Part shown: one piece after another, positions 13,414 through 44,873 of the stretch | Layout: every line of letters begins with the position of its first letter | How positions within the stretch are numbered: position 1 is the stretch's first letter | Assembly: GCA_963828195.1 (NCBI GenBank) | Contig: CAWHDT010000009.1 | Location: forward strand, 96,001 to 160,000 | Reading direction: 5' to 3' | Source: Candidatus Bathyarchaeota archaeon | GTDB lineage: Archaea > Thermoproteota > Bathyarchaeia > Bathyarchaeales > Bathycorpusculaceae | Length of the DNA: 64,000 nt | Translations under genes and position numbers: made by a program | The notes under the pieces: generated by a model | The model's database searches: none | Told to the model about the DNA's origin: nothing | The model's input: the letters and a program-made list of their open reading frames with translations, nothing else

Positions 13414-13460
13414 TGGAGCGTTCGGCGGGATTTGGACCCGCGACATTGCCTTACCAAGGT
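13414..13460 (-). repeat. att-like duplicate of the tRNA-Thr 3' half (anticodon loop to CCA)
   Basis: Matches 14336-14383 with 2 mismatches and 1 indel. Confidence 0.9.
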
Positions 13461-13534
13461 GTGCATTGTCGGGTGGATGGGAAACTCGGTTTATATCAAA
13501 GCTTATATGGTCAAAAAGATGTTCTCTATCATAA

Positions 13535-13768
13535 GTGGCAGTTATGGTAAAAATCAACGGTAACAAATTCACTGTAATCTTAAGAGAGGAGCCCGACGGT
13601 GGTTATTCAGCGCAATGCTTGGAACTTCCCGGAGCAATCAGCGAAGGATACAACCGCAAGGAAGCGCTTGTCAACATTAAAGAAGCCATCGAAGGGTACC
13701 TCGAAGCTTTCCCCGAAGAGGTTGACCAGCTTAAATGCAAGAAAGAGCTGGTGGAGATAACTGTCTGA
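13535..13768 (+). CDS. hicB: HicB family antitoxin
   Basis: FTVILREEPDGGYSAQCLELPGAISEG..EEAL.NIKEAI pattern. Confidence 0.9.
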   Translation: MAVMVKINGNKFTVILREEPDGGYSAQCLELPGAISEGYNRKEALVNIKEAIEGYLEAFPEEVDQLKCKKELVEITV

Positions 13769-13916
13769 AAAGTTGCCGTCTACATCTTGGCGTACGGTAA
13801 TTAAAGCTCTCAGCAAAAAAGGCTTTAGAGTCGCGGGTCAAAGAGGCAGCCACATATTTCTTACTGATGGAAAACATAAACTTACGGTTCCACGGCATAA
13901 CCCTGTTCTTGAATAG
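13761..13916 (+). pseudogene. hicA: HicA toxin, N-terminal two-thirds (CTG start overlapping hicB), C-terminus missing
   Basis: LSEKLPSTSWRTVIKALSKKGFRVAGQRGSHIFLTDGKHKLTVPRHNP then early stop; GSH catalytic motif. Confidence 0.8.
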
Positions 13917-13959
13917 CCCTCAAAATATCTTCAAGATAGAGCTTGATGTCTCTTGTCAT
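13882..13959 (-). pseudogene. Truncated HEPN (DUF86/HepT-like) toxin, N-terminus only
   Basis: MTRDIKLYLEDILRAIQE start overlapping the MNT stop (ATGA); runs into the hicA remnant and stops. Confidence 0.7.
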
Positions 13960-14255
13960 ACATAGATTGTCTCGTCAAGTATTTTATCCTTGATTCGTGT
14001 TTTAAGAGCGTCTTTTTGAACTAAGTCAACCTTCACCTTTAGTTTTCGACTTAAAAACTGTTTAAGCCCAATAAAATCCACCAAGTCAATGTCATTTGGC
14101 TCAAAAAAAGATACAAGAATATCCAAATCGCTTCTTTCATTTTGACAGCTCTGAGAATATGAACCAAATATGCCTACGGTTTTCACTTGAAACTCCTTTT
14201 CTAGGACTGGCTTAAGTAGCATAAGTTGCCTTTTAAGTTCATCAAGTGTTCTCAT
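13956..14255 (-). CDS. Minimal nucleotidyltransferase (MNT antitoxin of MNT-HEPN)
   Basis: GIFGSYS...SDLDILV and VKVDLV motifs; 99 aa. Confidence 0.9.
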   Translation of the reverse strand: MRTLDELKRQLMLLKPVLEKEFQVKTVGIFGSYSQSCQNERSDLDILVSFFEPNDIDLVDFIGLKQFLSRKLKVKVDLVQKDALKTRIKDKILDETIYV

Positions 14256-14335
14256 AGGCGCCTTCCATTTCTTTCTATAATTGAATTAATCTAAAAAAGT
14301 TTGCTAGACAACCAAAACACGACTAAAATATAATT

Positions 14336-14412
14336 TGGAGCCTTCGGCGGGATTTGGACCCGCGACCATTACCTTACCAAGGTAACGCCCCACCGGGCTA
14401 GGCTACGAAGGC
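14336..14412 (-). tRNA. tRNA-Thr(GGT), CCA encoded
   Basis: Cloverleaf GCCTTCG...CGAAGGC-T-CCA; anticodon arm TTACC-TTGGTAA-GGTAA. Confidence 0.95.
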
Positions 14413-14530
14413 AAACAATTTGTTCCCGTGAAAGAACTGCGTCTTGGCAATAAAATGCTTACGGTCGCAGCATCAATGATTTCTAAAAAAGAGTGTGCTA
14501 ATATGAATGGCAATAGTTAATCAAAGTTTA

Positions 14531-15286
14531 TTATTTTAACAATTTTTCTGGAACCATCCTCATGTATTTGTTGACATAGAACATGTCTGGTTCATGTTTG
14601 GTTGCCCTAACTCTAATGTCAAATTTTGGGTCTTGAGGATTAGTACTGTCAAATAGAATCAAACCTATGCCAAATACTAAGCAAAGTGATTCAAGTCTTT
14701 CTTTATCTTCTACGTCTGAAGCGTTGGGTATCACAATGTAAGTTTTATGACTAAAGGATCCATATGCACAAGCTTGACCAAAAGCAGTAATCAGGCCCTG
14801 AGTATCGGTTTTTATTTCAGCAGATACAATAATGATTTGGCGCTGAATTATTTCACCTAATGTAGCTCTTTCAATGCCTATTACGTCGGGTGTTCCCCAT
14901 TTATCACCGAAAGATTTTCCGCCTAATGGTATTGCTGTAGTGCACTCGCCAAGATCATTCTCTAGAAAATCAGCGAATGATGCATAGAAATCAATTTCTC
15001 TAACTGGAACGATATGCAGCTGGCTTTCTGATGTTGCAGTATTTTGTTTTTCCTTAAAAGAAACGTGCCTAAAAAGTCCTCTGCCCGCTTTATAGACCTC
15101 TGAAGGCTTGGTTGAATCAAGATTCCAAATCGTTCCTCGAATGTGGTTTACATTTGCATCGGGCAAACTGTTCTTTATTTGTCTTATTAAATTAGAATAT
15201 CGAACTCCCTCAGGGCTGTTCTTGAGAATTTCAATCGCTTTTTCCTCTATCCGTTCTTTGTAAGTTCGAGTTGGCATAGTTATCAA
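14531..15286 (-). CDS. HTH plus PD-(D/E)xK nuclease-like protein
   Basis: N-terminal winged-helix-like region; TPDVIG...SAEIK...FGQACAY restriction-endonuclease pattern. Confidence 0.7.
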   Translation of the reverse strand: MITMPTRTYKERIEEKAIEILKNSPEGVRYSNLIRQIKNSLPDANVNHIRGTIWNLDSTKPSEVYKAGRGLFRHVSFKEKQNTATSESQLHIVPVREIDFYASFADFLENDLGECTTAIPLGGKSFGDKWGTPDVIGIERATLGEIIQRQIIIVSAEIKTDTQGLITAFGQACAYGSFSHKTYIVIPNASDVEDKERLESLCLVFGIGLILFDSTNPQDPKFDIRVRATKHEPDMFYVNKYMRMVPEKLLK

Positions 15287-15373
15287 ATGAAGACTTTGAA
15301 TTTAAGAACTTATTGCAAGAACTCCTTAACAGATATTAAGGTAAAATCCTTTTATACTAAACCTTAATCGCAT

Positions 15374-15461
15374 GCAGGGGTCTCCAAGCCTGGTCAACGG
15401 AGTAGGGCTTAGGACCCTATCGCGTAGGCGTTCGTGGGTTCAAATCCCACCCCCTGCACCA
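15374..15461 (+). tRNA. tRNA-Leu(TAG), CCA encoded
   Basis: GCAGGGG...CCCCTGC-A-CCA; anticodon arm TAGGG-CTTAGGA-CCCTA; long variable arm. Confidence 0.96.
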
Positions 15462-15763
15462 CTCTAAGTAAAAGTATAGCTTTTTTTGGTATGTTTGCCT
15501 GGTTTTTTGTGATCTATCGTGTTAAATGACAATGAATAAAAAATAAAATTGAGCGTTTTAAGAGAGGAAATGCCCATAGCGATCAAACAACTTAATTGCA
15601 ATAGCGGGTCACATAATAAAAATTGAAAGTAGAATTTTCTAGTTCTTGTTGCAGTAGAGAAGTTGGAATCATAAAGGTAGGCGGTATCGGAGTCTTTTCA
15701 GTGGTTCTGTTAAGCCTCTGTTGCTTGACAGAATTCTTCTCCGTGTGAAAAATCGTCCCCAAA

Positions 15764-15985
15764 CTATATTTCGTTGTAGCGGTTGCAGTTTGGACACTTT
15801 AACACAACATTCTTGAATTTTCCTTCGATGATGTTCTCGCCTAGTTTTGATCCACAATTGCCGCATAGGTAAGTAGTGTTACCACCCTTGCTTTTTATTA
15901 CTGGCAACGTTTTGGATGCAAAAACGGTTCGGTTTCCCTTTTCTGGTTCTGGTATAGTTTTTAATTTTCTGTCCATTTTATCCAC
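15764..15985 (-). CDS. Small zinc-ribbon protein
   Basis: YLCGNCG...KCPNCN two CxxC pairs; 73 aa. Confidence 0.7.
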   Translation of the reverse strand: MDKMDRKLKTIPEPEKGNRTVFASKTLPVIKSKGGNTTYLCGNCGSKLGENIIEGKFKNVVLKCPNCNRYNEI

Positions 15986-16110
15986 TTACTTCGGCTTTTA
16001 TTGGTTTGACTTGGATTATAAGTTTATTGTTTTCTGCTCTTTTCGATTAGCAGTTTCAAATCAATTACACTGATAAAAAAGGGGAATGCGTGATGCCTCC
16101 ACGACTTTAG

Positions 16111-16134
16111 GGGTTCAAATCCACCCCCTGCACC
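16111..16134 (+). repeat. tRNA-Leu 3'-end duplicate (att-like) no. 1
   Basis: GGGTTCAAATCC-ACCCCCTGCACC; 1-nt deletion relative to 15436-15460. Confidence 0.9.
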
Positions 16135-16156
16135 TTTAAGCACTCGTCAAAACTCT

Positions 16157-16208
16157 ATGTCCTCGTGTCCATGTGCGTCCTTGATGGACATTTGCGGACA
16201 GGCGGGCA
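16157..16208. repeat. Dyad-symmetric six-box site GTCC-4-GTCC-6-GTCC-5-GGAC-6-GGAC-4-GG(G)C, copy A
   Basis: Boxes at 16159, 16167, 16177, 16186, 16196, 16204; same spacing as 17591-17642. Confidence 0.85.
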
Positions 16209-16215
16209 ATGTTGT

Positions 16216-17598
16216 CTATACTTGCCGATGGTAACCAAGCATATCTTCTGCCATGTTCTTTAAGCTGGGATCAACAAAATAAATTTTGGTTTTGCCCTTA
16301 CTCTTTATGGCAAGTATGGATCTTTCGTTTAATGCTTTTAGATGCTTTGCAAGAGAGCTTTTCTCGGCTGCCGTTGCTTTACTAAGTGCTTCATCCCTTC
16401 CGTAGGTTTCACCTTTCTGGAAAAGATACATTAGTATCTTGTATTCTGCGTCGCTGGGTTTTAGCATCTTGACATATGACATGCCAGCTTGATCAAGAGT
16501 AATTTTCTTATAAACTGTTGAGTCGAGCTTCCTTATGTCTTGGCTTGGCAAAGCAGATAAGAGCAGGTTGGAAAGCTCGTCCAAGATTAAGCGTATGCGA
16601 CCTTCATATTTTTCGTAGATTTCTGATAGCAACTTCTTATCTGCAAATTTGTAGATGGATATGCTAGGATCAATTGAAGCATCAGAATACATCTGTGATA
16701 AGAAAGCAAGTACATCTTCTTGGCATGGAGCAAGTACTTGTTCATAGTGGAATATGTCGGGATGGATTGGTTTTAGTCCATTTCTCCTTTTCAAAACTAT
16801 AATTACGTGAGCTAAATTTGCGTTCGTATAAAAGACATCTTTCAACAGTGTCATGATTGTTTTCTCGATTTGAGCGTTTTCTAGTTTGTCTACCTCATCT
16901 AGACCGATTACTACGCCGCGATAGCCCATGGTTTGCAAAAGGGCAAATCCTCGTCTCAGCAGATTAACAAAAACTGTATGAGAAAGAGTTTCAGTCCTTG
17001 CAACCAGAACCTGTTCTTGTTCCTCCTTAGTCAAATCCACCTTTATTATCGGAATTCCGACCGTGCTTGACAGACCCTGTGTTTCTATTGTTCCATTTGT
17101 AAATGTAATTTGATCAGAAGCATAAAGAATGGATAGAAAAGAGAGTTCTTCAAGGCTTTTACTTATTGATAATTTCCTTTCAAACAATCTCTTTAAGGTT
17201 CCAAGCATACTCGCATTACGCAAAGCTTCGGTGCTGATGGCAGAACCGAAAGCTCTTAAGAATTCTTGCTCGACGCCTTTAGCATTCTCAACCCCTACAG
17301 GAACTCTGTACTTTATCGTGAAATAGTTATCTTTAGTAAGAATGTTAAGTACCTTATTTAGGAGTGAGGATTTGCCTACTCCTAGATCACCGTGGAGGGC
17401 TACTTTGTAGCTTTTGCTCGTGGAGATTCCCATGTATATTTTTTCAACGATTTCTTTGCGATCTCTAAACAAGCTCTCGTCACGTTTCAGGCTCGCTTTG
17501 TCGATACCCGGTTCAAATAGTTCAAAGACCTGAAATGGGTTTGCTTTCAAATTAAACCGCGAGAGCGCCTTAACACTTGCTTGGTAATCAATGTCCAT
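16216..17598 (-). CDS. P-loop AAA+ (STAND/KAP/Orc1-like) ATPase with C-terminal winged HTH; start at 17598 or 17616
   Basis: FNLKANPF, Walker A GDLGVGKS, Walker B VVIGLDEVDK, GRIR, C-terminal wHTH (KSSLAKHLKALNERSIL..KGKTKIYFV). Confidence 0.85.
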   Translation of the reverse strand: MDIDYQASVKALSRFNLKANPFQVFELFEPGIDKASLKRDESLFRDRKEIVEKIYMGISTSKSYKVALHGDLGVGKSSLLNKVLNILTKDNYFTIKYRVPVGVENAKGVEQEFLRAFGSAISTEALRNASMLGTLKRLFERKLSISKSLEELSFLSILYASDQITFTNGTIETQGLSSTVGIPIIKVDLTKEEQEQVLVARTETLSHTVFVNLLRRGFALLQTMGYRGVVIGLDEVDKLENAQIEKTIMTLLKDVFYTNANLAHVIIVLKRRNGLKPIHPDIFHYEQVLAPCQEDVLAFLSQMYSDASIDPSISIYKFADKKLLSEIYEKYEGRIRLILDELSNLLLSALPSQDIRKLDSTVYKKITLDQAGMSYVKMLKPSDAEYKILMYLFQKGETYGRDEALSKATAAEKSSLAKHLKALNERSILAIKSKGKTKIYFVDPSLKNMAEDMLGYHRQV

Positions 17599-17642
17599 AT
17601 GTCCACACTTGTCCATTATGGACGATACTGGACACGCGGACA
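17591..17642. repeat. Dyad-symmetric six-box site GTCC-4-GTCC-6-GTCC-5-GGAC-6-GGAC-4-GGAC, copy B
   Basis: Boxes at 17593, 17601, 17611, 17620, 17630, 17638; overlaps the ATPase start and abuts a TATA-like box at 17641-17648. Confidence 0.85.
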
Positions 17643-17781
17643 TATAAGGTTTTTTGAACACAACCAACGCGATTTTCTGTTTCCGAGAGTTCTTCGTGTT
17701 TTTCCAGATGAAACAATCCCAATAAAAAAGGAAGAAAGCTGCAGAAAAAACGGTGGCTGGCGATATCGCCAGTTTGTGGGG

Positions 17782-17807
17782 GGGTTCAAATCCCACCCCT
17801 TGTACCA
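17782..17807 (+). repeat. tRNA-Leu 3'-end duplicate (att-like) no. 2
   Basis: GGGTTCAAATCCCACCCCTTGTACCA; 2 mismatches in 26 bp. Confidence 0.9.
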
Positions 17808-17929
17808 TATGGATTATTTTTGGTTAAACCGAAAGTCGGGTGGCTATCTTGTTAATGGAGAATAATCTGCGGAAGGCTTAAGCCTTAAGCCTCCATCTCT
17901 GTTTACACTAAGCACGGAAAGGTTTTTGC

Positions 17930-18169
17930 ATGGTTCATCGAAGAGTTCGAGGCGGAAAGTTCAAGATAAAGCATGTTGAGAAGCAACCTCCCGTTGAGTT
18001 GGGAGAGGAATTAGATGTGCACATAACCGACGTTTGTCCTAGCGGAGATGGGATGTCAAAAATTAGGGGCTACGTCATAATTGTGCCAAAAGCCAAGCCG
18101 AGAAACCGAGTGAAGATAAAGGTCACGCAAGTCGGCGAAAAAGCGGCAACGGGCGAAATAATCGAGTAA
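17930..18169 (+). CDS. Single TRAM-domain protein (archaeal RNA chaperone type)
   Basis: PPVELGEELDVHI....GDGMSKIRGYVIIVPKAKP..RVKIKV. Confidence 0.9.
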   Translation: MVHRRVRGGKFKIKHVEKQPPVELGEELDVHITDVCPSGDGMSKIRGYVIIVPKAKPRNRVKIKVTQVGEKAATGEIIE

Positions 18170-18204
18170 TTCTTTTTAATTACTTTGGTGCTAACTATGA
18201 AATT

Positions 18205-19479
18205 CTACAGCATTTGAGCTATGCTCGCGATGAAGAGTATTGTTGTTATTATGATGGTTGCTAATGCTAATGTCAAGGTGGCTTTCCCAAGTTTGTATTT
18301 GCCCATTAAATCCTTGTTTCGGGTGATAATTATCAGAGGTATTAGAATAAACGGCAGCAGGAGCCCATTTAGGTATTGAGTGAAGATCATTACTTGAATT
18401 TGGTTTGGTATGAACGCGAAAATTGCAGAGATAACGAGCGCCAAGACGAATACGAACCTGAATCTTCTCGCCTTAATGCGGCTCTCCAGACCCAAAAATC
18501 CGAAGGCGGAGTAAACGGTGCCCAACCCCACGGTAACCACAGCCAATATTCCAGCGAAAGCAAAGGCAACTGCGAAAACGTCCACCCCTGCTAAACCAAA
18601 TTTGATTCTGAAAGGCGCTGCTATATCGGCGAAGCTAGTTACCGATTTGCCCCCGATGAGCAATGCGGCACTTGCGATTATGACGATAGTGAGAATTGTG
18701 CCCATCAGGATGCTGACAAAGGAATCGACTCTTTCTTTCCGCACGCATTTCCGCTCTTTAGCTAATTCTTCTTTTCTTTCGCATTCGTCTTCTTTCATCA
18801 GGTCTTCAACTCCTTTCTCGTGGTGATGAGCCCACCCTTTTTCGTAAACTAATCCGCTGTGGAGGATGACGTAAGTAGGTGTAATGGAAGCGCCTATTAT
18901 CGCCTCGGCGTAGTAGAAGGAGTTAGCTTTCACTGATGGAACAAGGGAATTGTAAACTATCTGGCCGAAGTTTGCGTGGAGCGAGAAGAGAAAATATAGG
19001 TAGGCTAAGAAGATGGCAGTGACCAGGATCATCAAGATTTTCTCTAATGTGTCGTATGAGGTTAAGAAAACAAGAAAAATATTCAGCAGAATCGATATGG
19101 ATACTGCTATGGGGTAGGCTATGTTGAATAGGAAAGAAAACGCGAGGCTTAGACCAATTATTTCAGCAGTTAGTGTGGCAAGGTTCAGAAACAGCGAGAC
19201 TGCGAATAGCGGAAGTGAATAGCGTGGTCCAAACCTTTGGTGTATATTTTCCGCTAAAGTTTTTCCAGTGACGACGCCTAGCCGGGCACTAATCTCTTGT
19301 ATTCCTATTAGCAAGATACCTGAGTAGAAAGCTGCCCATAACACTGAAAAGCCAACCGCTGCCCCAGCCGCTGTTGCCGCAACGATGCTGGCAGGATCAA
19401 ACAGCTCTACTGAGACGAGGACTGCGGGGCCAAAAACGGAAATTACCGTTAAGACCTGCTTTAGGTTAATCTTTTTCAT
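18205..19479 (-). CDS. NRAMP-family divalent metal transporter
   Basis: QEISARLGVVTGKTLAE motif; about 11 TM helices. Confidence 0.88.
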   Translation of the reverse strand: MKKINLKQVLTVISVFGPAVLVSVELFDPASIVAATAAGAAVGFSVLWAAFYSGILLIGIQEISARLGVVTGKTLAENIHQRFGPRYSLPLFAVSLFLNLATLTAEIIGLSLAFSFLFNIAYPIAVSISILLNIFLVFLTSYDTLEKILMILVTAIFLAYLYFLFSLHANFGQIVYNSLVPSVKANSFYYAEAIIGASITPTYVILHSGLVYEKGWAHHHEKGVEDLMKEDECERKEELAKERKCVRKERVDSFVSILMGTILTIVIIASAALLIGGKSVTSFADIAAPFRIKFGLAGVDVFAVAFAFAGILAVVTVGLGTVYSAFGFLGLESRIKARRFRFVFVLALVISAIFAFIPNQIQVMIFTQYLNGLLLPFILIPLIIITRNKDLMGKYKLGKATLTLALATIIITTILFIASIAQML

Positions 19480-19606
19480 GTGCCCATTTTCCTTCAGATA
19501 TCAGATGAAGATGCCGAATCAATGTCTAAAATATTTTAAACTTAATTATTAAACATTACAATTAGAGACCAGCCTTCCAAACTTCGACCTTTTCCCATCT
19601 TGCTGG

Positions 19607-19633
19607 GGGTTCAAAATCCCCCTCCCCCGCAAC
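19607..19633 (+). repeat. Degenerate tRNA-Leu-like 3'-end duplicate no. 3
   Basis: GGGTTCAAAATCCCCCTCCCCCGCAAC. Confidence 0.65.
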
Positions 19634-19851
19634 TAAATTTATGAGAACTTGGAAATTTCTGCAGAAACTGGTGAGTCATTCGCCCTCATTATTTTTATAA
19701 ACAAAAATTGGTGAGTAATAGCGACGGCTGAATCGGAGAGAGATTTCTTCTCAATAGTTTTTTAAGGCGATACGCCATAACGTTCCAATCACTGTAGGCA
19801 TTTACCTATGGTCGGGAGTTAATCACTATCCACGTCAAGGGATGCAAAATC

Positions 19852-20961
19852 ATGAATAAAAAATTGCTAGTAGCCATTTTTGTAACATGTTTTCTTTTTT
19901 CAGTCGTAGTTTTTTCCCAAATAGCCTATTGTCAAAAATCAACACCAAGCTCTACGACACAGCCAACCCCCGCTAAAGCAGGAATACTTGGAAGCACCTC
20001 TGCCTTATTACTTATTGGCGGAATCGTAGCGGTTGTAGCGGTAGTTGTTGTAGTAACTTTTGTTTTCGTTTTTAAGAAGAGGGGGCGTGGAAAGAGTCTA
20101 AATGGTGGAGTTTCCACTGGTGCCTTCGAAGAGCGGGTGATAAAAAAATTCAATGGTAAACCAAGTGACCCATCTACGGGCGTAAGCGGGTTTACTGAGG
20201 GAGGTCAACCTCTTTTGATCAAACAATCCGATCCTGTCCGCTTGGCTGATGTAGAAGCTTTTGTCAAAGTGCTAGTAAAAGGAGGAGCACAAAAGGGCAT
20301 AATTGTTGCACCCGATTTTGATGACACAGCTCTGGAGGGAAAAATTACCGCGTCGGAAAATGGAACTGAGCTTCAGCTGCTACGCATAAATGAACTGATG
20401 AATAAGCGTTATGCTAATAGAATTAAAGAGCTTGCTATTTCACAGGTTTCCTTTGAGGCGCCAACTACATATGCAACAGATGACCCAGTGACCAAAACAC
20501 CAACTTTTGTTGAAAGAACGCCAAATGAGCCGCAAAAAGACGGTCTGAAACCTCGTGTCTTCATATCTAACAGCAGCACCCAAGTTTCTGACCAGATAAA
20601 GAAAATGTTGGATTTTCTGCATTATGACTACGTTATGGGCGATAAAGAAGAAACAACTGTGCCAATTTCTGAAAACAAATTCGGGTTGATGCAAGACTGT
20701 GATTGCGCAATAATAAACATCGCTGCCGCTGAACAGGAGCGAAGGTACAGCGGCCTCTACATCCTTAATTCGAACGTAACCTCTGAAATCGACGCGACCT
20801 ATCTGAAATACAATACACAGGTTATTCTGTTGGTTGAGCGAAAAGTAGAGTTGCCTCCAAATCTTAAGGGTCTAAAAAGGATTGAATATGACAGTGATGA
20901 TTTATCTTTCAACGCAGCAATGGATCTCAAGAAGGCATTGGAAGACTTTAAGAAACTATAG
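19852..20961 (+). CDS. Membrane-anchored protein with degenerate Mrr-like domain and C-terminal TIR-like nucleotide-binding domain
   Basis: Signal peptide and TM; KQS..V...VEAF...KGIIVAPDF (Mrr-like); PRVFISNS...CDCAII...NSNVTSEI...LPPNLKGL..IEY (TIR-like). Confidence 0.75.
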   Translation: MNKKLLVAIFVTCFLFSVVVFSQIAYCQKSTPSSTTQPTPAKAGILGSTSALLLIGGIVAVVAVVVVVTFVFVFKKRGRGKSLNGGVSTGAFEERVIKKFNGKPSDPSTGVSGFTEGGQPLLIKQSDPVRLADVEAFVKVLVKGGAQKGIIVAPDFDDTALEGKITASENGTELQLLRINELMNKRYANRIKELAISQVSFEAPTTYATDDPVTKTPTFVERTPNEPQKDGLKPRVFISNSSTQVSDQIKKMLDFLHYDYVMGDKEETTVPISENKFGLMQDCDCAIINIAAAEQERRYSGLYILNSNVTSEIDATYLKYNTQVILLVERKVELPPNLKGLKRIEYDSDDLSFNAAMDLKKALEDFKKL

Positions 20962-21010
20962 TTTTTTCATCCCTCAAATCAAACTAGGTCAAAGGCTCTG
21001 CCGTCCTAAA

Positions 21011-21033
21011 GGAGTTCAAATCACAACCCTGCA
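21011..21033 (+). repeat. Highly degenerate tRNA-Leu 3'-end duplicate no. 4
   Basis: GGAGTTCAAATCACAACCCTGCA. Confidence 0.55.
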
Positions 21034-21255
21034 TTTTTAGCACTGCGTCGCGAACCATAGCTCTCAGCGAGAAATCGGTCCTAATAATCCTAACAATTGT
21101 ACCACCTTAATGATCCGTGGCGCCTATAACGCGAATCGTTTTTGCCCATAAAAATCACGGATTTCAGTTAGCCAAGTATCAAAATAACCACTAAATAAAA
21201 TAAAATATAAGTCTTCATTTACCTGCAAAGATGAAAGTAGCCTCCCCGTTCTATA

Positions 21256-22284
21256 TCAAAAAGTTGATATGTATTGTTGTCGGCTTGGCCATCTTTCGGG
21301 TATTTTCCTTGTGCTGGCTTCAACTTTTTTTATGCCGCAGGTCCTTGAGATTTGGTCTTGTATGGCGAATGACTGCGCCGTGTCTCTAACCATAGCTGAC
21401 AATTGCAGATCATAATCGCCGCTAGTTTTTGTAATTATAATTACATCAGGTATTTCCGTAAGTGACTCAACAACCGTTTCCGGCAGGGTGTCGGGAGCGG
21501 CAACAGCTATGTTGAAATCAATTATCGACGTGTATCCAATTTTATTTGGGTTTATTTGGATTGAAACCTTTATTGAGCCCTTTTCCCTGAGCTTATGATA
21601 CCTATTTACCACTGTGTCAGTTGACAATTCCAGTTCTTTCGCAATTTTAATAAACGACGCGCGTCCGCCCATCGTAAGCTTTGCCACTATTTGCCTGTCT
21701 AACTCATCAATTGCAATTTCATCGATCAGTGTTCGGATTGGTTTATTTGATTTAAGTTGATTAAGAGTGTTGGTGCCTTTCAAGGCGCCTGTGAAATTTA
21801 GGTTTTCAGGAATATTTCTAACGCCAGTCCAGATGTAAGTTTTTAGTCCTGTAGTGGGAAGTTTTCTCTTAATTATCTGCTTCACATCGTTCAATTCATT
21901 TAAGTCCCTTAAAGTTGCAATTGCCCTCACATTGTAAACACTGTTATACTGGCGGTAGGCACGTATCTCCGTTATTTTCTCTATAAACTCCATAACTTGA
22001 TCTATTTGCTGAGCATCAATACTGATGAGCAGAGTTGCAAGCGCGGCATTTCCGAAATGGCCAAAATTCATCTGAATTGTTGCCCCGTTAATTATGCCTT
22101 TTTTTTCCATTGCCCTGAAACGTTTCCAAACTTTGTTTTCCGAGACTTCGCATTCTCTGGCTATTTCACCAAAACCTACCCGACCATCTTGTAATAGTTT
22201 TTTCAGTATTTTAGAATTAAGCTCATCGATTTTAAACACGTTATTTTCTCTAAGTTCTTCACTTTTTCGGGTTTTGGGATTCAA
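21256..22284 (-). CDS. Lrp/AsnC family regulator, tandem double HTH-RAM
   Basis: Two IDELD..I...L..DGR..F..IA HTH units; SGDYDL. Confidence 0.9.
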   Translation of the reverse strand: MNPKTRKSEELRENNVFKIDELNSKILKKLLQDGRVGFGEIARECEVSENKVWKRFRAMEKKGIINGATIQMNFGHFGNAALATLLISIDAQQIDQVMEFIEKITEIRAYRQYNSVYNVRAIATLRDLNELNDVKQIIKRKLPTTGLKTYIWTGVRNIPENLNFTGALKGTNTLNQLKSNKPIRTLIDEIAIDELDRQIVAKLTMGGRASFIKIAKELELSTDTVVNRYHKLREKGSIKVSIQINPNKIGYTSIIDFNIAVAAPDTLPETVVESLTEIPDVIIITKTSGDYDLQLSAMVRDTAQSFAIQDQISRTCGIKKVEASTRKIPERWPSRQQYISTF

Positions 22285-22363
22285 AATTTCTTATTTCCTT
22301 GCAGAATTTTAAAGAAAATTGCAAATTTATCGTTTTTGGCTAATTTAACGTCTGCGGCTTTGT

Positions 22364-23344
22364 TTAGAAAGTCGATATATATTGGCGCGGTGATGGCCAT
22401 TTGTCTCGTACTCTTACTACTTCCATATCAATTTTTATTATTTCTTGAATTTTCCCAAGTTCTTCTTGAATTGAAAGTAACTGCTCTAAGTCCCGTATCA
22501 TTGCCCAAATTTGCAAATCGTAGTCTCCAGTTGTTTTCATGATGCTTATAATATCAGGGATTTTACTGATTTTCTTAATAATTACTGAGTTTTCCTGTGA
22601 GGTAGCGGTGAAAAAAATGCATATAGCTTTGTATCCGATTTTTTTAGGATTTATTTGAATTGTAGCTTTCAATACACCGTTTTTCTTTAGTTTTTCGTAC
22701 CGCCTTTTAACGGTATCAGCTGCGATTCCTATTTCTGTAGCAAGTGCCTCAATGGGCATCCGTCCGTTCTCAGAAAGTTTGTCAGCTATTTTCTGATCAA
22801 TTTGGTCGATGACTAAGGTTTGAGCGCTGCTCTTTTTTTTAGAACTTGACTGGAAAGTGCTTGTATCCTCTATATTTTTTATCTCATCTGGAATTATTGC
22901 CAAGTTATAATTCATTTCTTTTACATCTGTCCAGATTCCAGTTCTCATTTCGAAAACGGAAAAATGATTTTTGATGTCGTCTTTGATTTCGTTTAATTCT
23001 TCAAGCGTTCTTAGAGTTACGACAACATCTATATTTCCTTTGATTTGCCTGCTGTAGAAGGAAAAAACTCCTGGCATTTTTTGCAGGTACTCTATAAGTT
23101 GCTTTTCTTGCCGTGAGTCAAAATTGATTAGAATATGCGCGACTGCCTTGTAGCCAAAGCTCTTATAATTAATGTGTATTGTCGCACCTATGATTATGCC
23201 AGCTTGTTCCATTTGGGCACGATTTTTCTGAACAATTTCTTCAGTTGTTCCTATTTTTTCCGCAATTTCGCTGTCGCTTTTGCGTCCATCGGATAATAAA
23301 CTTTTGAGAATTTTTGCTTGAACTGCACTAATTTGCTCGGTTAA
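22364..23344 (-). CDS. Lrp/AsnC family regulator, tandem double HTH-RAM; frame extends upstream of the called ATG without a canonical start
   Basis: In-frame LTEQISAVQAKILKSLLSDGRKSDSEIAEK HTH upstream of 23212; paralogue of the neighbour (shared WPS.RQYISTF-type end). Confidence 0.8.
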   Translation of the reverse strand, partial: LTEQISAVQAKILKSLLSDGRKSDSEIAEKIGTTEEIVQKNRAQMEQAGIIIGATIHINYKSFGYKAVAHILINFDSRQEKQLIEYLQKMPGVFSFYSRQIKGNIDVVVTLRTLEELNEIKDDIKNHFSVFEMRTGIWTDVKEMNYNLAIIPDEIKNIEDTSTFQSSSKKKSSAQTLVIDQIDQKIADKLSENGRMPIEALATEIGIAADTVKRRYEKLKKNGVLKATIQINPKKIGYKAICIFFTATSQENSVIIKKISKIPDIISIMKTTGDYDLQIWAMIRDLEQLLSIQEELGKIQEIIKIDMEVVRVRDKWPSPRQYISTF

Positions 23345-23590
23345 GACCTTTTATCCCTCGTAGAGATTCTTGGTACTTTGTCTTTATATTTAAATTCATC
23401 GCACATTTCGCATTTCCCGTCCTTTTACCGTCTGCATTCGCAGATTCTGGCTTTGTAATCCGAGCTCCTATTATTTTCCTTTTATTGTCGAAAATGGCAA
23501 TTTTATCCGATTTTATTTAAGGTTTTAAAAACGTTTAAATGTACACAACGGAAAAAGTCTAGTCACAAAATAAAAAGGAGAAAAAGAAAA

Positions 23591-26467: not shown

Positions 26468-26526
26468 AACAAAAAACAGTAAAAAACCACAATCTATCTT
26501 TCCCTTTTTTAGTCCTAAAAAGCAAC

Positions 26527-26640
26527 GGAGAAAAGAATAGGGGCTGAGAAGGCTCTGGGTGAATTAACAAAGAGCAATTGCCTTTAGCAAGCAATTCATC
26601 TTTTCTCCTTTAAATTTTTCCCAGAGCCTCAGCAAACCCC
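26527..26640. other. Intergenic element with interleaved inverted repeats (candidate structured RNA or MITE remnant)
   Basis: GGAGAAAAGA/TCTTTTCTCC and AGGCTCTGGG/CCCAGAGCCT perfect 10-bp pairs plus an inner AATTGC/GCAATT hairpin. Confidence 0.4.
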
Positions 26641-26851
26641 ACTTTTATATTTCGTTTTTAATCACCCAATTGTTTTTTTGGAAAACATAGCTTAGTTTTG
26701 TCAACCTGCCTTATGCATTGAACCTTGTTACCGCTTTTCTTTCTCATTCAAATGTTGCTCGCTTGAATAGAGCTCAGAGAAGCAAAAAGGAATAGAAAAA
26801 AAGATTAGTAAGAGCAATGCACGTATAAACATTGAACAGTGAAGGAATTTA

Positions 26852-28609: not shown

Positions 28610-28943
28610 TTGTCGGCGTTGCCTTGCGAGGTAAATGCTATTTTTTTTGTCTTTGTAGGTCAGCACAGCTCTTACTTTTTTGTGGCTAGTTGACCCAGTA
28701 TGGAGTTAAACGATACTGGTCCCTTAACAGCATACAGGACCGACATCCCATTGCATAAACGATATTATTTTTAGTAGAGTAGCAACTCAGCGAATGGAAA
28801 CGCCAGCACTAAGACCACCAAGTGCTTCCATCTGCTCCCTCTAATTTGGCGAAAGCAATATAAAGCTAAATTGGTTAAGGGTGAGGAAGCGAACGAGAAA
28901 ATTAAGTTTCTTGCTCGATAAAAAATTTGAAGGAAAATAAAAA

Positions 28944-31808: not shown

Positions 31809-32009
31809 AAGCCATAAAACAAAAACATAATAAAACCTCTTTTCTTTTTTTTATATTGCTTCTAAATCAAGTTTGTTGATAAGTATTATTACTTTAAAAT
31901 TATGGGCCTAACAGCATGCTTGCATGTGCTTGGAATAAAAGTTCAACCGTGACCCATAGGGATAAATCAAGCGGTAACAGGAGGGCTTTCTTTATTCGAA
32001 GTAAAAAGC

Positions 32010-32693
32010 ATGAACAAGAAAACGAAGTTACTGGCGATAACTATTGCAGTCGTCATCATTGTCTCACCTCTAGCTGTTTTCAACTTCGTTAAATCACAAA
32101 ATATCAACTCTCAAACGTATTTCCCCAATTATCCTATCCGCGTCGCATGCGTTGGAGACAGCATCACCCAAAACAGCGGGTACCCTTCCGACCTACAATC
32201 AATGCTTGGAAATAACTACACGGTAGGTAACTTTGGCGTCAGCGGGTCAACCGTGCTGCTTAATTCTTGGGAACCCTACATGAACCAGACTCAATTCCAA
32301 GACGCCAAAGCATTCGAGCCCAACATCGTCGTTATTATGCTTGGAACTAACGATGATCTTATGGATCTTCACCCATATAATGAAAGTTTCGAAAGTGATT
32401 ACGCTGAACTGGTAACCTCATTTCAGCAGCTCCAAAGCAAACCACATATCTGGATTGTAACGTCGCCGTCGATTTTCAGCAACAGTTCAGATTTAAGTCC
32501 CTCATACTTGACGGATACAATTATTCCGAAAACCGAGGATTTGGCAAACAAAATGAATTTGCCTATAATTGATGTTAACAGCGCTTTTGGCAACAGCAGT
32601 GACCTCTTCATAGATGGAGTGCACCCGAACAGTCAAGGAGCAACCCTGATTGCAACCGAAGTGTACGATTCCATAAATTCCACTTATAACTAG
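32010..32693 (+). CDS. SGNH/GDSL hydrolase, N-terminally anchored
   Basis: GDSIT, NFGVSG, LGTND, DGVHP blocks. Confidence 0.93.
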   Translation: MNKKTKLLAITIAVVIIVSPLAVFNFVKSQNINSQTYFPNYPIRVACVGDSITQNSGYPSDLQSMLGNNYTVGNFGVSGSTVLLNSWEPYMNQTQFQDAKAFEPNIVVIMLGTNDDLMDLHPYNESFESDYAELVTSFQQLQSKPHIWIVTSPSIFSNSSDLSPSYLTDTIIPKTEDLANKMNLPIIDVNSAFGNSSDLFIDGVHPNSQGATLIATEVYDSINSTYN

Positions 32694-32768
32694 GCCAAAC
32701 TTACTGGCACTAAAGAAATTAAATAAAAAAGCACATTTGAGATATCAAGCCGTAAGTATTTGCGTTTT

Positions 32769-33515
32769 TTATTTTGCTGGCTTGAGTTTGCTTAAGAATA
32801 TTTGGTAAACGACGATGGCTGCGTAGAAGCCGTATGAAAGTATAAGTTTTGGGCGGTGAACGGCGTACTTTAGGTCGCTGACCATTAATTCGACGTGTTT
32901 TCGGGTTGTCCATACTTCTTCGGGACGAAAATGAATGCAGTACGGTACGTAAACCCCTAAAACCTTGTAGCCTTTTTTTTCAATCCAATCTTTGATGTAA
33001 CCGTCCTCGTAAGTATGCAGTTGATAGGGTATTTTGATGTCTTCAACTGTTTTACGCCGAATCAGCGTGTCGTGGGTTCCGCCTCTTTTATCAAATATTT
33101 TTATTGTAACCCTTTCAAACAGATATAGCAATTTTTTCGATTCTCTTAGCACCGACCAAATTTCGATTCCCCAAACGGCGCCTACATTATCTTTAACTAG
33201 TTTTTCCGCCTCAGCAAACCAGTTTTTAGACAAGATAACGTCGCTGTCAACGAACATGAACCAATCGCTCTTCACCATTCTGATTGCAGTCTGCCTAGCG
33301 GTGCCTCTTGTTCCTTTTTCTTGAACAAAGCTAACGTTCCCGTATTTTTCTTGGAACTCTTTCACTATATCAGCGGTTTTATCAGTGGAGAAGCCGTCGA
33401 CAACAATGAGGCGGTTAACTGGAACGTTCCTGTAAACAGAATTAATACACTGCTTCAACATGTGATCGCTGTTCATTGTGAGAATGGCAACATCTATTGG
33501 CTCCATCATAATCAA
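32769..33515 (-). CDS. Glycosyltransferase family 2
   Basis: IVVDGFSTDKT, FMFVDSD. Confidence 0.92.
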   Translation of the reverse strand: MIMMEPIDVAILTMNSDHMLKQCINSVYRNVPVNRLIVVDGFSTDKTADIVKEFQEKYGNVSFVQEKGTRGTARQTAIRMVKSDWFMFVDSDVILSKNWFAEAEKLVKDNVGAVWGIEIWSVLRESKKLLYLFERVTIKIFDKRGGTHDTLIRRKTVEDIKIPYQLHTYEDGYIKDWIEKKGYKVLGVYVPYCIHFRPEEVWTTRKHVELMVSDLKYAVHRPKLILSYGFYAAIVVYQIFLSKLKPAK

Positions 33516-33637
33516 CCTACTTTTTTATAAATAACCTTTTTATCTTTACCTGAAAAGAAAGTTTTCGGTTGCTTGCTATCATCTTCTTCGGCTGCTGGTC
33601 TATCAAATTTGTTATCCTCTTTGGCGCGAAAACATTT

Positions 33638-34807
33638 TTAATAACCCATTAAGCCACAGCATCGGGAGCATATTGGAAAAACTCCATTGTCGCAGCTTCT
33701 CAGGGCGCGTCTAAATTTGCGGTGTTTTTCATTATTGTATATTTCAAGGATGCTTGATTCCATAATGTTTCCTGTAACAAAATCTGGAAAATCTCTACAT
33801 GTTACGGTGTCTCCGTTTGGCATTACATCTAACTGGAACCACGGTGAAACACATTTTTTGTATCCGAAGAAGTTTTCGGGTTCGGTATAGTAGGTTCGAA
33901 TCTCCTCTGGTTTGAGGTCAGGCACAAACAGAATTGGCATCTTAGTTTTTGTAGATTTTATTTGTTGTACTTGCTCAGCGATTTTGTCTATGTTCAGTTT
34001 TGTGGTGTCGCGTACGTAGCCTTTCCATGCGAACGGTGTTACGCCTAACTTTTCCTCCGCTATTTTTGTGTGTTTCTGCCCTATCCATTCTTTAGTGAAC
34101 CAAGAGTAGTAAATCGTCATACCGTCAGGGCTTAGTTTTTCAGCCTCTTTCACAGTGTCAACTAAAGTGGATTCGTTGTTCTTGGAAATTGTTGTGATAA
34201 TAAAAATGCCGGGTTTCGTCTTTTTCTTCTGTTTCTTTATTTTTTGAATAGCCAATATTCCTTTTTTTGCTGTATCTAACGCGCCTGGGACGCCTCGGCA
34301 TTTATCGTGGATCTCTCTTGGGCCATCAAAGGAGACGCAAATCATGTCCCACCCGTTGTCAACAATTGTTTCAGCGTTTCTTTCTAATCCAACCCCGTTT
34401 GTAACAACTTGTACTGTTAAGCCTTTTTGTTTCATGTAGTTGACAAGGGGAACCAGTGGTTCGTAGAGAAAAGGTTCTCCGCCCGTTATGTAAACGTGAA
34501 CTTTTTTTGGAGCAACTTCGTCTATTACTTTTTTGTAAATTTCAACTGGGACTTCCCCTGTGACTTTTGGTGTGTCGTCCCTTGCGTTGTATCCGGCTTG
34601 ACCCCATTGTGCACAGATTGCGCATCTGTGATTGCAACGATGGGTAATTCTTAGGCTCAGCAACCCAAGGGAAGAGCTGGCTCCATCTTCATTTCGGTAG
34701 TCTATTCTTGATTTAACCATCCCTCTGTATGAGACTCTAGCAAGGCTCATCAGGAGTTGGGGGTTTCTGCACATCGGAGTCATGAACTGTGTTGGGATTC
34801 GTCTCAT
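33638..34807 (-). CDS. Radical SAM protein with SPASM/twitch domain
   Basis: CNHRCAIC, TGGEPF, C-terminal CVSPW...C...CSRCC. Confidence 0.92.
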   Translation of the reverse strand: MRRIPTQFMTPMCRNPQLLMSLARVSYRGMVKSRIDYRNEDGASSSLGLLSLRITHRCNHRCAICAQWGQAGYNARDDTPKVTGEVPVEIYKKVIDEVAPKKVHVYITGGEPFLYEPLVPLVNYMKQKGLTVQVVTNGVGLERNAETIVDNGWDMICVSFDGPREIHDKCRGVPGALDTAKKGILAIQKIKKQKKKTKPGIFIITTISKNNESTLVDTVKEAEKLSPDGMTIYYSWFTKEWIGQKHTKIAEEKLGVTPFAWKGYVRDTTKLNIDKIAEQVQQIKSTKTKMPILFVPDLKPEEIRTYYTEPENFFGYKKCVSPWFQLDVMPNGDTVTCRDFPDFVTGNIMESSILEIYNNEKHRKFRRALRSCDNGVFPICSRCCGLMGY

Positions 34808-34881
34808 GAATACTACTCGTTGCTCTACCTTTTAGGAGGGTGTACAATTTAAATTTGACCCATAAGCATTAAAATTTAACG

Positions 34882-35031
34882 TTACTTAAGCCTCAAACCA
34901 ATTGTGTATCGAAGTGTTTCAGGCCAATTGTTTCCTCGATTTTTTGTAACGTAGTTAAACATCGGAAGAAAGACTGCTTCATAAGCCTCACCTAAAGTCT
35001 TCATCAACTTCATATTCTCTCTCACAGTCAT
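34882..35031 (-). pseudogene. Possible remnant of a SnoaL/ester-cyclase-like gene (N-terminus only)
   Basis: GGAGGT SD; MTVRENMKLMKTL resembles the N-terminus of ester cyclase family proteins, then diverges; 49 aa. Confidence 0.35.
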
Positions 35032-35252
35032 CAAAATAACCTCCATCTTCTGCTTTTTTAATTGGATGATTCAATCAGTTGAAATTTATAATTTAGATAA
35101 TTTCGTAGAAACATAATTTCTTCGAAGTTTATCAAAAGTTTTTTGGAAAAATTTGTTTTTCGATCGCCTCTTTTAGCTTTTAAGCATAATTTTATTAACG
35201 ATTAACAACAAAGGTTCTGTAGTTAGACTACCTTAAACAAGAGGTATTTTTC

Positions 35253-40899: not shown

Positions 40900-41438
40900 A
40901 TAGTCACCCCTCACCAAGCAAACAAACGCATCCACATTCTAAAACGTTACCCTTTACCTTCCCATTTCTAGAAGAAAACTTGGAAACTTGCACAATATTT
41001 TATTAATTAATTCAAGAAACGCCAAATTTTTTTCGAGCCAGAAAAAGCTTTCTGAATCTGAATATCAAAAATCAGTTATTTATCTTGCTTAAAGTCAAAA
41101 ACTTGTAGCGATTAAAGTTCTGAGAGAAATCATTATGAACACTGACGATTATTATATTCATTGGAACCGGTAATCACGCTTTGGGCTGTGTCAATCTTTG
41201 ACGATCAAGACTTTGCTTTGCGGATGCGTTTACGAAGAGAAAGATTGGATGCTTGTGAGAATAAAAGAGTGCGAAAGGCATCATAAGCAGCGAACAAGGA
41301 AGCGCGAATACAGGCCAAAAGCCGAATGTAACAGAAATGATACAAAAGGCGAATAAACCTTTAAACGTTGAAAATTGAACAAAAAAGAATAAAGCACTCA
41401 AGGCACATTCTTTCTCGTAAGTTAGAGCGATGTAACCT

Positions 41439-42227
41439 ATGTCCGAACATAAATCCGAATGGCCTGAATCCGGCGATCTCGTAATCGCCACAATAGAGAG
41501 CGTGATGGATTATGGAGCCTACGCTAACCTCGATGAATACAGTAAACGTGGGTTCCTTCATATCTCCGAAATTTCCAGCGCCAGAATAAGAAACGTCCAC
41601 GACTACGTTCGTGAAAAACAAAAAATGGTTCTGAAAGTTCTCCATGTAAACCTTGAGAAAGGCCACATTGACTTATCTCTCAGACGCGTTACAAAACGTG
41701 AAAGGATTGAAAAAATCAAAGCTTGGAAAAGAGATCGCAAGGGCGAAGTCCTTCTGCGTGCTGTTTCAGAAAAAGTTGGGTTGCCGGTTCATGAAGTTTA
41801 CCAGAAAGCAGGTATTATTCTTGAAGAAAGCGTCGGTTTATATGATGGCTTTGAAAAAGCTCTCAAAGACGGCGCAGAAGCCCTAACTAAACTGGGCGTA
41901 CCTGAAGATATCGCCAAAGCTTTTGTTCAAGTTGCCGAAGAACGCATCCATATCAAAATGGTGAAAGTCAGAGGCACACTTGAAATTCGATGCATGAAAC
42001 CCAACGGCGTTAAATGCATTCAATCAGCATTCATCGATGCAAAGAAAGCGCAAAAAGCTAAAGACGCTAAAATCGAATTTTGCGTGATTGCCGCTCCTAG
42101 ATATAGCGTGGAAGTCTCGGCTGATAACTGGAAACGCGCTGAAGATCTTCTGGATGAAGTAAGCCAAGGCGTAGTCTCCAACATCACTAAGGCAGGCGGA
42201 CACGGTTCCTTTAAACGAGAGAAATAG
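41439..42227 (+). CDS. eif2a: Translation initiation factor 2 alpha subunit (aIF2-alpha)
   Basis: WPESGDLVIAT S1 domain, GFLHISEI, GHIDLSLRRV, AAPRY. Confidence 0.96.
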   Translation: MSEHKSEWPESGDLVIATIESVMDYGAYANLDEYSKRGFLHISEISSARIRNVHDYVREKQKMVLKVLHVNLEKGHIDLSLRRVTKRERIEKIKAWKRDRKGEVLLRAVSEKVGLPVHEVYQKAGIILEESVGLYDGFEKALKDGAEALTKLGVPEDIAKAFVQVAEERIHIKMVKVRGTLEIRCMKPNGVKCIQSAFIDAKKAQKAKDAKIEFCVIAAPRYSVEVSADNWKRAEDLLDEVSQGVVSNITKAGGHGSFKREK

Positions 42228-42235
42228 GTGAATAA

Positions 42236-42574
42236 ATGAGAGAACCAATTGACAAAGTAATTTGGGGTCACGTAGAAAAACTTGGCAGAGGCACCCGAGC
42301 AAACTATGAACCTGGCAAAAAAACCATTACTTTCTGCTTCAAGAGAGGCGAAGAGACTTCAAGTGAGCAACTAAGGAAATTACGCGAACAACTTATGGAT
42401 GAATTAAAACAACTAGGCTACGCTAGCCACATGAAATACAACGGGGAAGTAATTGCGGAAAACATAGAAGAACAAGATGTAGTTCTAACCAGAAAAAATC
42501 ACCAGCTCTCAATTCGCCTAAGCAAGAAGGGTTCTGGAGAAAAAGAAAAGGACGTTTCAGAGCAGCCGACTTAA
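42236..42574 (+). CDS. Hypothetical protein
   Basis: 112-aa ORF with GGTGA SD directly after aIF2-alpha. Confidence 0.7.
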   Translation: MREPIDKVIWGHVEKLGRGTRANYEPGKKTITFCFKRGEETSSEQLRKLREQLMDELKQLGYASHMKYNGEVIAENIEEQDVVLTRKNHQLSIRLSKKGSGEKEKDVSEQPT

Positions 42575-42711
42575 CTTTTCCCATAGGGAACAACTTTAGG
42601 AACGAAAGCTTTGACGACGAGACCTTAGCCAGCGCAGGCTTAATATGCAGCTTTTGTATGGCTAAATATGGTGCAGATAAGAGTTTTCATTGAAATCCAC
42701 GGTGAATATAA

Positions 42712-44813: not shown

Positions 44814-44873
44814 AAGTCTAAAATATGTCAAAACAGCTCGAAAGAAAGAATTAGGAAAATCAACCACACACCA

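Follow-up and report, generated by a model that had tools for sequence, protein, structure and literature searches.

Scars left at tRNA genes by inserted DNA are textbook knowledge, and non-autonomous elements flanked by attachment (att) sites are known in bacteria. The streptococcal cis-mobilisable elements (CIMEs), for instance, are att-flanked, lack a recombinase and lie in tandem with other elements at one site, where accretion with a conjugative element allows them to be mobilised in cis. In an integron, a tyrosine recombinase adds small units at a fixed site; most units hold one gene, each has a recombination site at one of its ends, and the resulting array is polar. Here we analyze a stretch of 64,000 nucleotides from a Candidatus Bathyarchaeota archaeon (assembly GCA_963828195.1, contig CAWHDT010000009.1, positions 96,001 to 160,000; 'the window'), in which an intact tRNA-Leu(TAG) gene is followed by four partial copies of its own 3' end, with small gene-bearing units between them. 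In the tycheposon islands of Prochlorococcus, tyrosine recombinases target the 3' parts of tRNA genes, only a partial tRNA copy lies between elements, newcomers push older elements inward, and degenerate remnants and extra partial tRNAs are scattered throughout (bioRxiv 10.1101/2020.12.28.424599). In the Thermococcaceae, virus and plasmid DNA integrated at tRNA genes is bounded by one complete and one partial tRNA copy, and the partial copies serve to trace integration events and rearrangements (PMC9897764). Tandem accretion and islands studded with partial tRNAs are known in bacteria, and tRNA-integrated elements are known in archaea. Our literature search, with subscription journals and supplementary files outside its scope, found no description of such arrays in Bathyarchaeia.

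The locus resembles the tycheposon islands (bioRxiv 10.1101/2020.12.28.424599) in the tandem accretion of units separated by tRNA tails. It differs in its archaeal host, in its units, which are mostly single genes of 0.65-1.8 kb with no integrase or integrase fragment left in the array, and in the recurrence of the same small units across about 38 species. The inserts described in the Thermococcaceae study (PMC9897764) are single and about 9-23 kb long, whereas here up to four copies within 5.7 kb bound units that lack an integrase. As in the CIMEs, the DNA of the array lies in tandem between att sites akin to those of an autonomous element, and it has no recombinase of its own; unlike the CIMEs, it is associated with no known transfer apparatus, and its units are far smaller and only putatively mobile. 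The resemblance to an integron lies in the polarity of the array and in its small units, which each carry a recombination site at one of their ends. The preliminary description of this DNA had called the accretion integron-like, a comparison that does not hold further: no intI gene or other integrase lies beside the site, no attC-type folded site or common promoter is shown, the genes lie on both strands, and it is a tRNA gene that serves as the site. The units end in tRNA-tail copies with an upstream motif, which is palindromic only at the second copy. The system also differs from the SSV-type ('suicidal') integrase, which is split by its internal att site, since the integrase of the relatives is intact beside the tRNA; in addition, no integrase pieces, as the SSV type would lead one to expect, were found flanking the copies in the window.

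The tRNA-Leu(TAG) gene is predicted by both ARAGORN and Rfam at 15374..15461 (+ strand), and its last 23-26 nt, from the T-stem to the CCA, form the putative attachment core (attB/attL). Four copies of the T-arm/acceptor 3' end had been reported behind the intact gene and in the same orientation; a repeat search and direct reading recovered all of them on the + strand, at 16110-16135 (F1), 17782-17807 (F2), 19607-19632 (F3) and 21010-21039 (F4). Measured against the 23-nt core, which runs from the 5' strand of the T-stem to the discriminator, F1 to F4 lie at edit distances of 1, 2, 4 and 4, so the reported growth of divergence with distance from the tRNA is only roughly borne out. Among 40,000 random 38-nt windows of the genome, two came within four edits of the core, one of them at distance 0. 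Across the whole 2.83-Mb assembly, a pattern search allowing three mismatches at most matched only tRNA-Leu(TAG), a tRNA on contig 6 with an identical 3' end, and F2, and gave no reverse-strand and no control match. Compared with 44 tRNA predictions, F1, F2 and F4 are closest to tRNA-Leu(TAG), alone or tied. Relatives have clear tRNA-Leu ends at the positions homologous to F3 and F4, and in genome G080 the copy at the F4 position is exact (26/26). These results confirm that the four tRNA-tail copies are real and beyond chance. A candidate fifth copy at 21086-21104 was dismissed, as its 11 edits from the core are at chance level.

The arrangement extends across the genus. The relatives' records are metagenome-assembled genomes of Bathyarchaeia, whose isolate names indicate bog and peat, and the sequencing runs containing the stretch are soil and bog metagenomes. 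tRNA-Leu(TAG) is present in all 81 genus genomes searched, with 95-100% conservation. Of 80 relatives with a mapped tRNA, 40 were picked for long contigs and compared from 4 kb before to 16 kb behind the tRNA (five of the fetched loci are cut by contig ends). At the 41 loci including the window, the sites within four edits of the core comprise 41 tRNAs and 40 same-strand downstream fragments (at 27 loci), with none upstream and one antisense; the polarity seen in the window thus holds genus-wide, in 40 of 41 fragments. A tRNA with a same-strand downstream 3' repeat occurs at 26 of the 40 relatives' loci, and the window, with four fragments, has the most of any locus. By size, 23 of the 40 closed units are below 2 kb, 11 reach 5 kb or more, and the remaining 6 fall in the range of 2-5 kb. 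tRNA-Leu(TAG) is an integration hotspot in this genus.

A candidate enzyme is found at the same place. In several relatives, a 439-aa integrase with a PF00589 domain (E 3.1e-15) and an N-terminal Zn-ribbon lies directly behind the tRNA on the opposite strand (G050, G063, G086, G005, G082, G089, G017 and others), with open frames of 430-470 aa and no stops. Members of the family are found in 106 of the 120 genus genomes, in up to 14 copies each, and many copies adjoin tRNA-Leu(TAG) or another tRNA-Leu. The far ends of three intact integrase elements were located at 23.6, 33.5 and 35.5 kb from the tRNA, and one of the three has genes for SIR2, EVE and AbiEii proteins and for a helicase. [quoted passage not shown]

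The sequences beside the core, whose classes were assigned by eye, point in the same direction. A class A arm, consisting of an A-run, GGGG and then GCGGGTGAYATCTCCAC 8 nt ahead of the core, is found at F1 and at about 25 fragments of relatives, as well as around elements that retain integrase remnants (L023, L030); in the window it reads as an A-run, GGGG and then GCGTGATGCCTCCAC, at 16075-16102. A class B arm (GCTGCGAAGAAA ... TGGCGATATCGCCAG) precedes F2 at 17738-17772 and includes the palindrome GGCGATATCGCC (17759-17770). This arm matches the attR arms of integrase-bearing elements of 33-36 kb, and an F2-type GGCGATA(T/A) arm is present at the far end in two of the three intact elements with an integrase. 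F4 is preceded by a TIR-type arm. On the other side, many units start, after the tRNA or copy, with a TATAAGCAAAAC...GGGGG-like text, variants of which stand behind the tRNA, F1 and F4 in the window; by eye, this post-core arm resembles the post-tRNA arm of integrase-bearing loci. By these visual comparisons, the units that end in F1 and F2 appear to be flanked by att sites related to those of autonomous elements. The same arm is also joined to Ala-, Arg- or Pro-type tRNA tails (also at L053, L098, L106 and L107), and in the window's own genome a GYGGGWGAYATCTCC-like arm stands before Pro/Arg-, Arg(CCT)- and Ala-type T-arm copies (C1:6753-6832, C5:519155-519234 and C5:638726-638804). Because the same arm motif precedes tails of these several types, the sequences suggest one element family with several tRNA targets.

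The units of the array recur in relatives to very different extents. By our own count of the match listing, the unit with the TIR-like gene and the unit with a Zn-ribbon gene (c17) each recur in about 38 of the 119 relatives, as against 8 for the Nramp gene and 1 for the ATPase gene. Homology of the TIR unit begins at 19655, 23 nt past F3, in six genomes and stops at 21025-21033, within F4. Among 16 TIR loci, the left neighbour is an intact tRNA in three (immediately before the unit in G010, G051 and G126) and a tRNA fragment in nine, so that F3 stands where relatives have a tRNA or fragment; a T-arm-like copy marks the right end in 15 of the 16 loci and is exact in G080. The expectation that unit edges coincide with the copies in relatives is thus borne out on both sides, at 12 and 15 of the 16 loci. 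Among 31 c17 loci, judged by eye, 18 show the arm motif with a T-arm-like copy and two the motif alone. c17 lies near tRNA-Leu(TAG), tRNA-Leu(CAG) or tRNA-Arg(CCT), varying by genome. The TIR unit precedes c17 in G010, G096 and G120 and follows it in G118, G088 and G121. Units were found beside tRNA fragments elsewhere, a point that the preliminary description had proposed to check, and also in shuffled order and at other tRNAs. The TIR unit is distal to the TRAM gene in the window and proximal to it in G087, G126, G059 and G096, so the idea that the array is a chronological record of acquisitions is valid only in part. The possibility that c17 is the universal end gene of these elements was dismissed, since the genes adjoining fragments are diverse.

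Of particular interest is one precise insertion. G010 and G120 share the array tRNA - TIR - c17, and G120 has an extra 3.7-kb unit exactly between the CCA and the TIR unit. This unit holds a single 922-aa open reading frame (ORF) with PQQ/Ig-like similarity and no integrase; it has a class-B fragment, and the text beyond that fragment is the text that follows the tRNA in G010. Precise gain or loss of a whole unit, which the preliminary description had asked for in related genomes, is therefore documented for this integrase-less pair, but no such pair was found for the four units of the window.

We consider it likely that the locus arose by tandem accretion, at tRNA-Leu, of non-autonomous, integrase-less units with element-type ends. 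Accretion behind the tRNA is evident, as are its polarity and the modularity of the units. The 3' end of tRNA-Leu(TAG) would be the attachment site of archaeal tyrosine integrases of about 440 aa (N-terminal Zn-ribbon, PF00589); integration would recombine inside the T-arm and restore the tRNA, each insertion would copy 23-26 nt, from T-stem to CCA, to the far end of the insert, and newer inserts would displace older ones away from the tRNA. The window would retain four such footprints, with the Zn-ribbon, the ATPase-winged helix-turn-helix (wHTH), the composite TRAM/Nramp and the TIR-like segments between them, and these units would be non-autonomous derivatives of integrase elements that keep a class A or B arm upstream and the TATAAGCAAAAC-like arm downstream of the core. 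Since they lack an integrase and keep the arms of the elements, they could be excised and re-inserted only by an integrase from elsewhere. The precise insertion in G120, the variable order of the units and their several tRNA contexts argue for movement with a borrowed integrase, and we infer that the units of the window arose or moved as small units by recombination in trans and not by deletion in place.

Several observations weigh against this interpretation. Although tRNA-Leu is the best or joint best match of F1, F2 and F4 when the copies are aligned to all tRNA predictions, F3 is nearer to tRNA-Ser(GGA), at 3 edits, than to tRNA-Leu(TAG), at 4. A loose regular expression for the arm is not specific and was set aside: it matched the genome 44 times and a reversed control 55 times, and by eye about six of the genome matches look real. 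The left side of the TIR unit lacks an att copy at 4 of the 16 loci, and 11 of the 31 c17 loci have, by eye, neither motif nor copy. The Nramp segment has no tRNA fragment of its own elsewhere and the ATPase has one homologue in 120 genomes, so two of the four 'cassettes' have no comparative support. The identity of the TIR unit follows that of the backbone in the four genomes compared (88 versus 90% in G016, 87 versus 84-91% in G080, 82 versus 79% in G047 and 79 versus 81% in G051), and there is thus no sign of its recent transfer; the pattern fits vertical descent. No tyrosine or serine recombinase was found in the window. The prediction that a tyrosine integrase targets tRNA-Leu is supported by the family beside the tRNA in relatives, but the window's own genome has only one distant homologue (30% identity, on contig 3), around which neither a tRNA nor a T-arm-like site was found within 35 kb, together with one integrase fragment 31 kb before the window. 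Circular junctions, which had been suggested as a test, did not turn up either: the thinly covering contigs of four public runs contain no excision or circle junction. Nothing at the locus indicates present-day mobility.

These contigs, assembled from the four runs and placed on 14300-22300, are fragmentary. They bear out the junctions across F1 and F4, and one contig of run X1 covers 15543-16493 with no differences. Another contig of X1 leaves the window in the middle of F2 (17798) and continues into 137 nt of unrelated sequence, which could be an alternative junction or a relative's locus and is too weak for use.

The absence of an integrase from the array, claimed from the first, stands after a search of the whole window; a sensitive tblastn search with four integrases found no integrase remnant there either, the best hit (E 0.01) falling within the TIR ORF. 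This bears on the best surviving alternative, namely that the intervals are the last remnants of large integrase-bearing elements, shrunk by deletion in place and never mobile as small units, with recurrence due to vertical inheritance and changes of order due to later rearrangement or homologous recombination between copies. Such decay demonstrably contributes in the genus: three short units in relatives, L036 (265 bp), L040 (1272 bp) and L043 (1305 bp), keep only the last 36-56 codons of an integrase, remnants also lie behind fragments in L041 and L042, and the integrase gene at the tRNA is interrupted by stops in G041 and G044. For some short units in relatives, the eroded-remnant explanation raised at the outset is thus shown directly, and the agreement between TIR-unit and backbone identity favours it as well, as does the order TRAM then TIR, common to the window and G016, the closest relative sampled (where 17.6 kb separate the two and a single decayed fragment lies in between). 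As a full account of the window it seems improbable. Its units hold no integrase remnant, and at 12 of the 16 loci the leader of the TIR unit lies about 10-25 nt from the core, a regularity not to be expected of independent deletions; moreover, c17 and the TIR unit occur in both orders, c17 stands beside three different tRNAs, and the integrase-less 3.7-kb insertion in G120 is precise and has both arms.

Tandem accretion of small units could, at the other extreme, reflect an active integron-like platform, in which the tRNA-Leu 3' end captures single-gene cassettes, each with a module of about 70 nt (arm motif and tRNA-tail mimic) of its own, and trans-acting integrases shuffle and exchange them genus-wide. 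Conserved modules of arm and tRNA tail do stand at the ends of different cargo genes, with tails of the Ala, Arg and Pro types as well, 23 of the 40 units are below 2 kb, both unit orders are seen, and mini-units stand behind at least five other tRNAs of the same genome. We nevertheless regard such a platform as very unlikely, since no resident integrase adjoins the site, the genes lie in both orientations and apparently have their own promoters, evidence of recent exchange is lacking, erosion is demonstrably operating, and the contigs of the four runs hold no circular forms. That the copies are not scars at all, being either chance T-arm-like sequences or selected tRNA-like punctuation (processing or termination signals), is scarcely credible: GTTCAAATCC is indeed a T-loop motif of a generic kind, tRNA-Ser(GGA) matches F3 no less well than tRNA-Leu does, and F4 begins 49 nt past the stop codon of the same-strand TIR gene, but chance is excluded by the two of 40,000 windows within four edits and the absence of control matches, three of the five genes run antisense to the copies, relatives have exact tRNA-Leu tails or the tRNA itself at the same positions, and integrases lie at the site in relatives.

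With tandem accretion of non-autonomous units retained as the preferred interpretation, a wider and much more tentative possibility may be considered. In this Bathyarchaeia genus, tRNA 3' ends might capture miniature, mostly single-gene modules, including defence-type, toxin-antitoxin and metabolic ones, that end in a piece of about 70 nt (arm motif plus tRNA-tail mimic), are moved among tRNA-Leu isoacceptors and other tRNAs, and are inserted, excised and shuffled by a large family of tyrosine integrases acting in trans, as an archaeal, tRNA-anchored functional analogue of the integron; we think this possible, though on balance doubtful. The scars described here bound units too small to encode an integrase of their own, and the same units, with conserved ends, are found in dozens of uncultured soil and peat Bathyarchaeia. 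If integrases are indeed borrowed, abundant uncultivated archaea may trade defence, toxin-antitoxin and transport genes one at a time, and the defined att sequences, together with the integrases, would be candidate genetic tools for archaea. If the units are eroded relics only, the locus would still be useful, as a marker by which past insertions can be dated and as a caution in annotating tRNAs.

The units themselves are simple, and none in the window has recombinase or transfer genes of its own. Unit 1 (15462..16135; 0.67 kb) consists of the 73-aa Zn-ribbon gene c17 (15764-15985, - strand), whose Pfam matches are under the cut-off, the arm motif and F1. Unit 2 (16136..17807; 1.67 kb) contains an AAA_22 ATPase with a C-terminal wHTH (ORF 16216-17808, - strand; Pfam 28.5 bits, above the cut-off), the class-B arm and F2. 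The opening codons of this ORF are F2 read in antisense, the same peptide stands at the head of an ORF in L036 that is otherwise unrelated, and the sole homologue found in 120 genomes, in G080, aligns only from residue 69. Since the 5' codons are F2 antisense and the homologue begins so late, the true start of the ATPase is probably internal to the ORF.

The third interval (17808..19632; 1.8 kb) is composite and ends in F3. TRAM and Nramp had been taken as one cassette, a view that has to be abandoned: the TRAM gene (17930-18169, + strand; Pfam 38 bits, above the cut-off) is syntenic with G076 in the collinear backbone and is a backbone gene, not cargo, and the Nramp gene (18205-19479, - strand; Pfam 235 bits, above the cut-off) occupies a separate inserted single-gene segment of its own at about 18170-19604. 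This segment stands alone in eight congeners, once beside tRNA-Arg(GCG). The notion that F3 is the scar of the Nramp unit was dismissed, because nothing tRNA-like follows the segment at five other Nramp loci; homology there extends to about the start of F3 in one locus and is shorter in four.

Unit 4 (19633..21039; 1.4 kb) begins with a leader, conserved from 19655, and ends in F4. It encodes a 369-aa membrane protein (19852-20961, + strand) with a restriction-endonuclease-like middle and a TIR-like C-terminus, the TIR match being under the Pfam cut-off; among the 120 homologues listed, 24 carry PF10137. The middle domain, earlier named Mrr, may have a restriction-endonuclease fold, for which the support is weak (Foldseek E 3.6e-3 with a poor model, pLDDT 53); no Foldseek match to the model reached E <= 0.001. 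PADLOC gave no match for the TIR or the Zn-ribbon protein. The gene content first proposed is accordingly firm for Nramp, TRAM and AAA_22, which pass their Pfam cut-offs, but not for the Zn-ribbon and TIR assignments, which lie under them, nor for Mrr. Three of the five array genes are on the - strand, opposite to the tRNA-tail copies.

The backbone shared collinearly with G076 and G016 comprises the tRNA-Thr/tRNA-Leu pair, TRAM (17885-18173), the glycosyltransferase and radical-SAM genes, and aIF2-alpha. The glycosyltransferase and radical-SAM/SPASM genes (32765..34870, - strand), syntenic in relatives, mark the reach of the variable zone; aIF2-alpha (41439-42227) and the gene that follows it form a further syntenic anchor (41372..42576, + strand). 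The distance from aIF2-alpha to tRNA-Leu is merely 1.2-1.8 kb in some congeners, and the entire 26 kb here is therefore variable zone. Between the shared backbone genes, G076 has nothing that corresponds to the stretches 18174-32764, 34871-40753 and 42577-48078, which include two regulators of the AsnC/Lrp type and PQQ-like proteins of 958 and 585 aa with many paralogues in the genus.

tRNA-Thr(GGT), predicted by ARAGORN and Rfam at 14336..14412 on the - strand, diverges from tRNA-Leu. A 251-aa ORF (14531-15286), with a weak wHTH match only, separates the two tRNAs here and in G076; it is missing in G016, where they lie about 120 nt apart, and contigs of runs X1 and X2 join 14465 to 15373, the sole joint in the contigs of the four runs, which is the same form without the ORF. 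Behind tRNA-Thr(GGT), 31 nt of its 3' end are copied (97%) at 13414-13444, 0.9 kb downstream, and bound a mini-unit (13414..14412, - strand) that mirrors the tRNA-Leu array. The mini-unit holds an MntA-like nucleotidyltransferase antitoxin (13956-14255; PADLOC PDC-S09, E 1.7e-24), for which no HepT partner was recognised, and a weak HicB-like ORF (13535-13768, + strand).

Similar features are seen at other tRNAs of this genome. Copies of the 3' end lie close downstream of tRNA-Ala(CGC) (0.8 kb), tRNA-Asn (1.4 kb), tRNA-Cys (1.4 kb) and tRNA-Ser(GCT) (1.5 kb), on contigs C5, C3 and C1, and tRNA-Ser(CGA) has three copies at 7-13 kb. A perfect 32-nt copy of tRNA-Leu(GAG) lies inverted 13 kb away and may mark an inversion. 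Within the window, Rfam detects a 151-nt tRNA at 61258-61408 (38.3 bits), presumably with an intron, that the default ARAGORN run missed; such a tRNA marks the assembly as archaeal.

Some tRNA-Leu loci of relatives hold other cargo. In L033 (G002, with an exact copy), L028 (G056) and L034 (G075), tRNA-Leu and a tRNA-tail copy enclose an operon of the non-oxidative pentose-phosphate pathway, with transaldolase, transketolase halves fused with ribulose-phosphate epimerase, and phosphoribosyl pyrophosphate (PRPP) synthetase; flanked in this way, the metabolic operon seems to be inside an att-bounded unit. L021 (G013) and L053 (G055) have a 0.75-kb hicA/hicB unit between tRNA-Leu and long copies (50 and 70 nt; 97-98%), and in L036 (G005) an 81-nt tRNA copy stands 185 nt past the tRNA, with the integrase tail alone between them.

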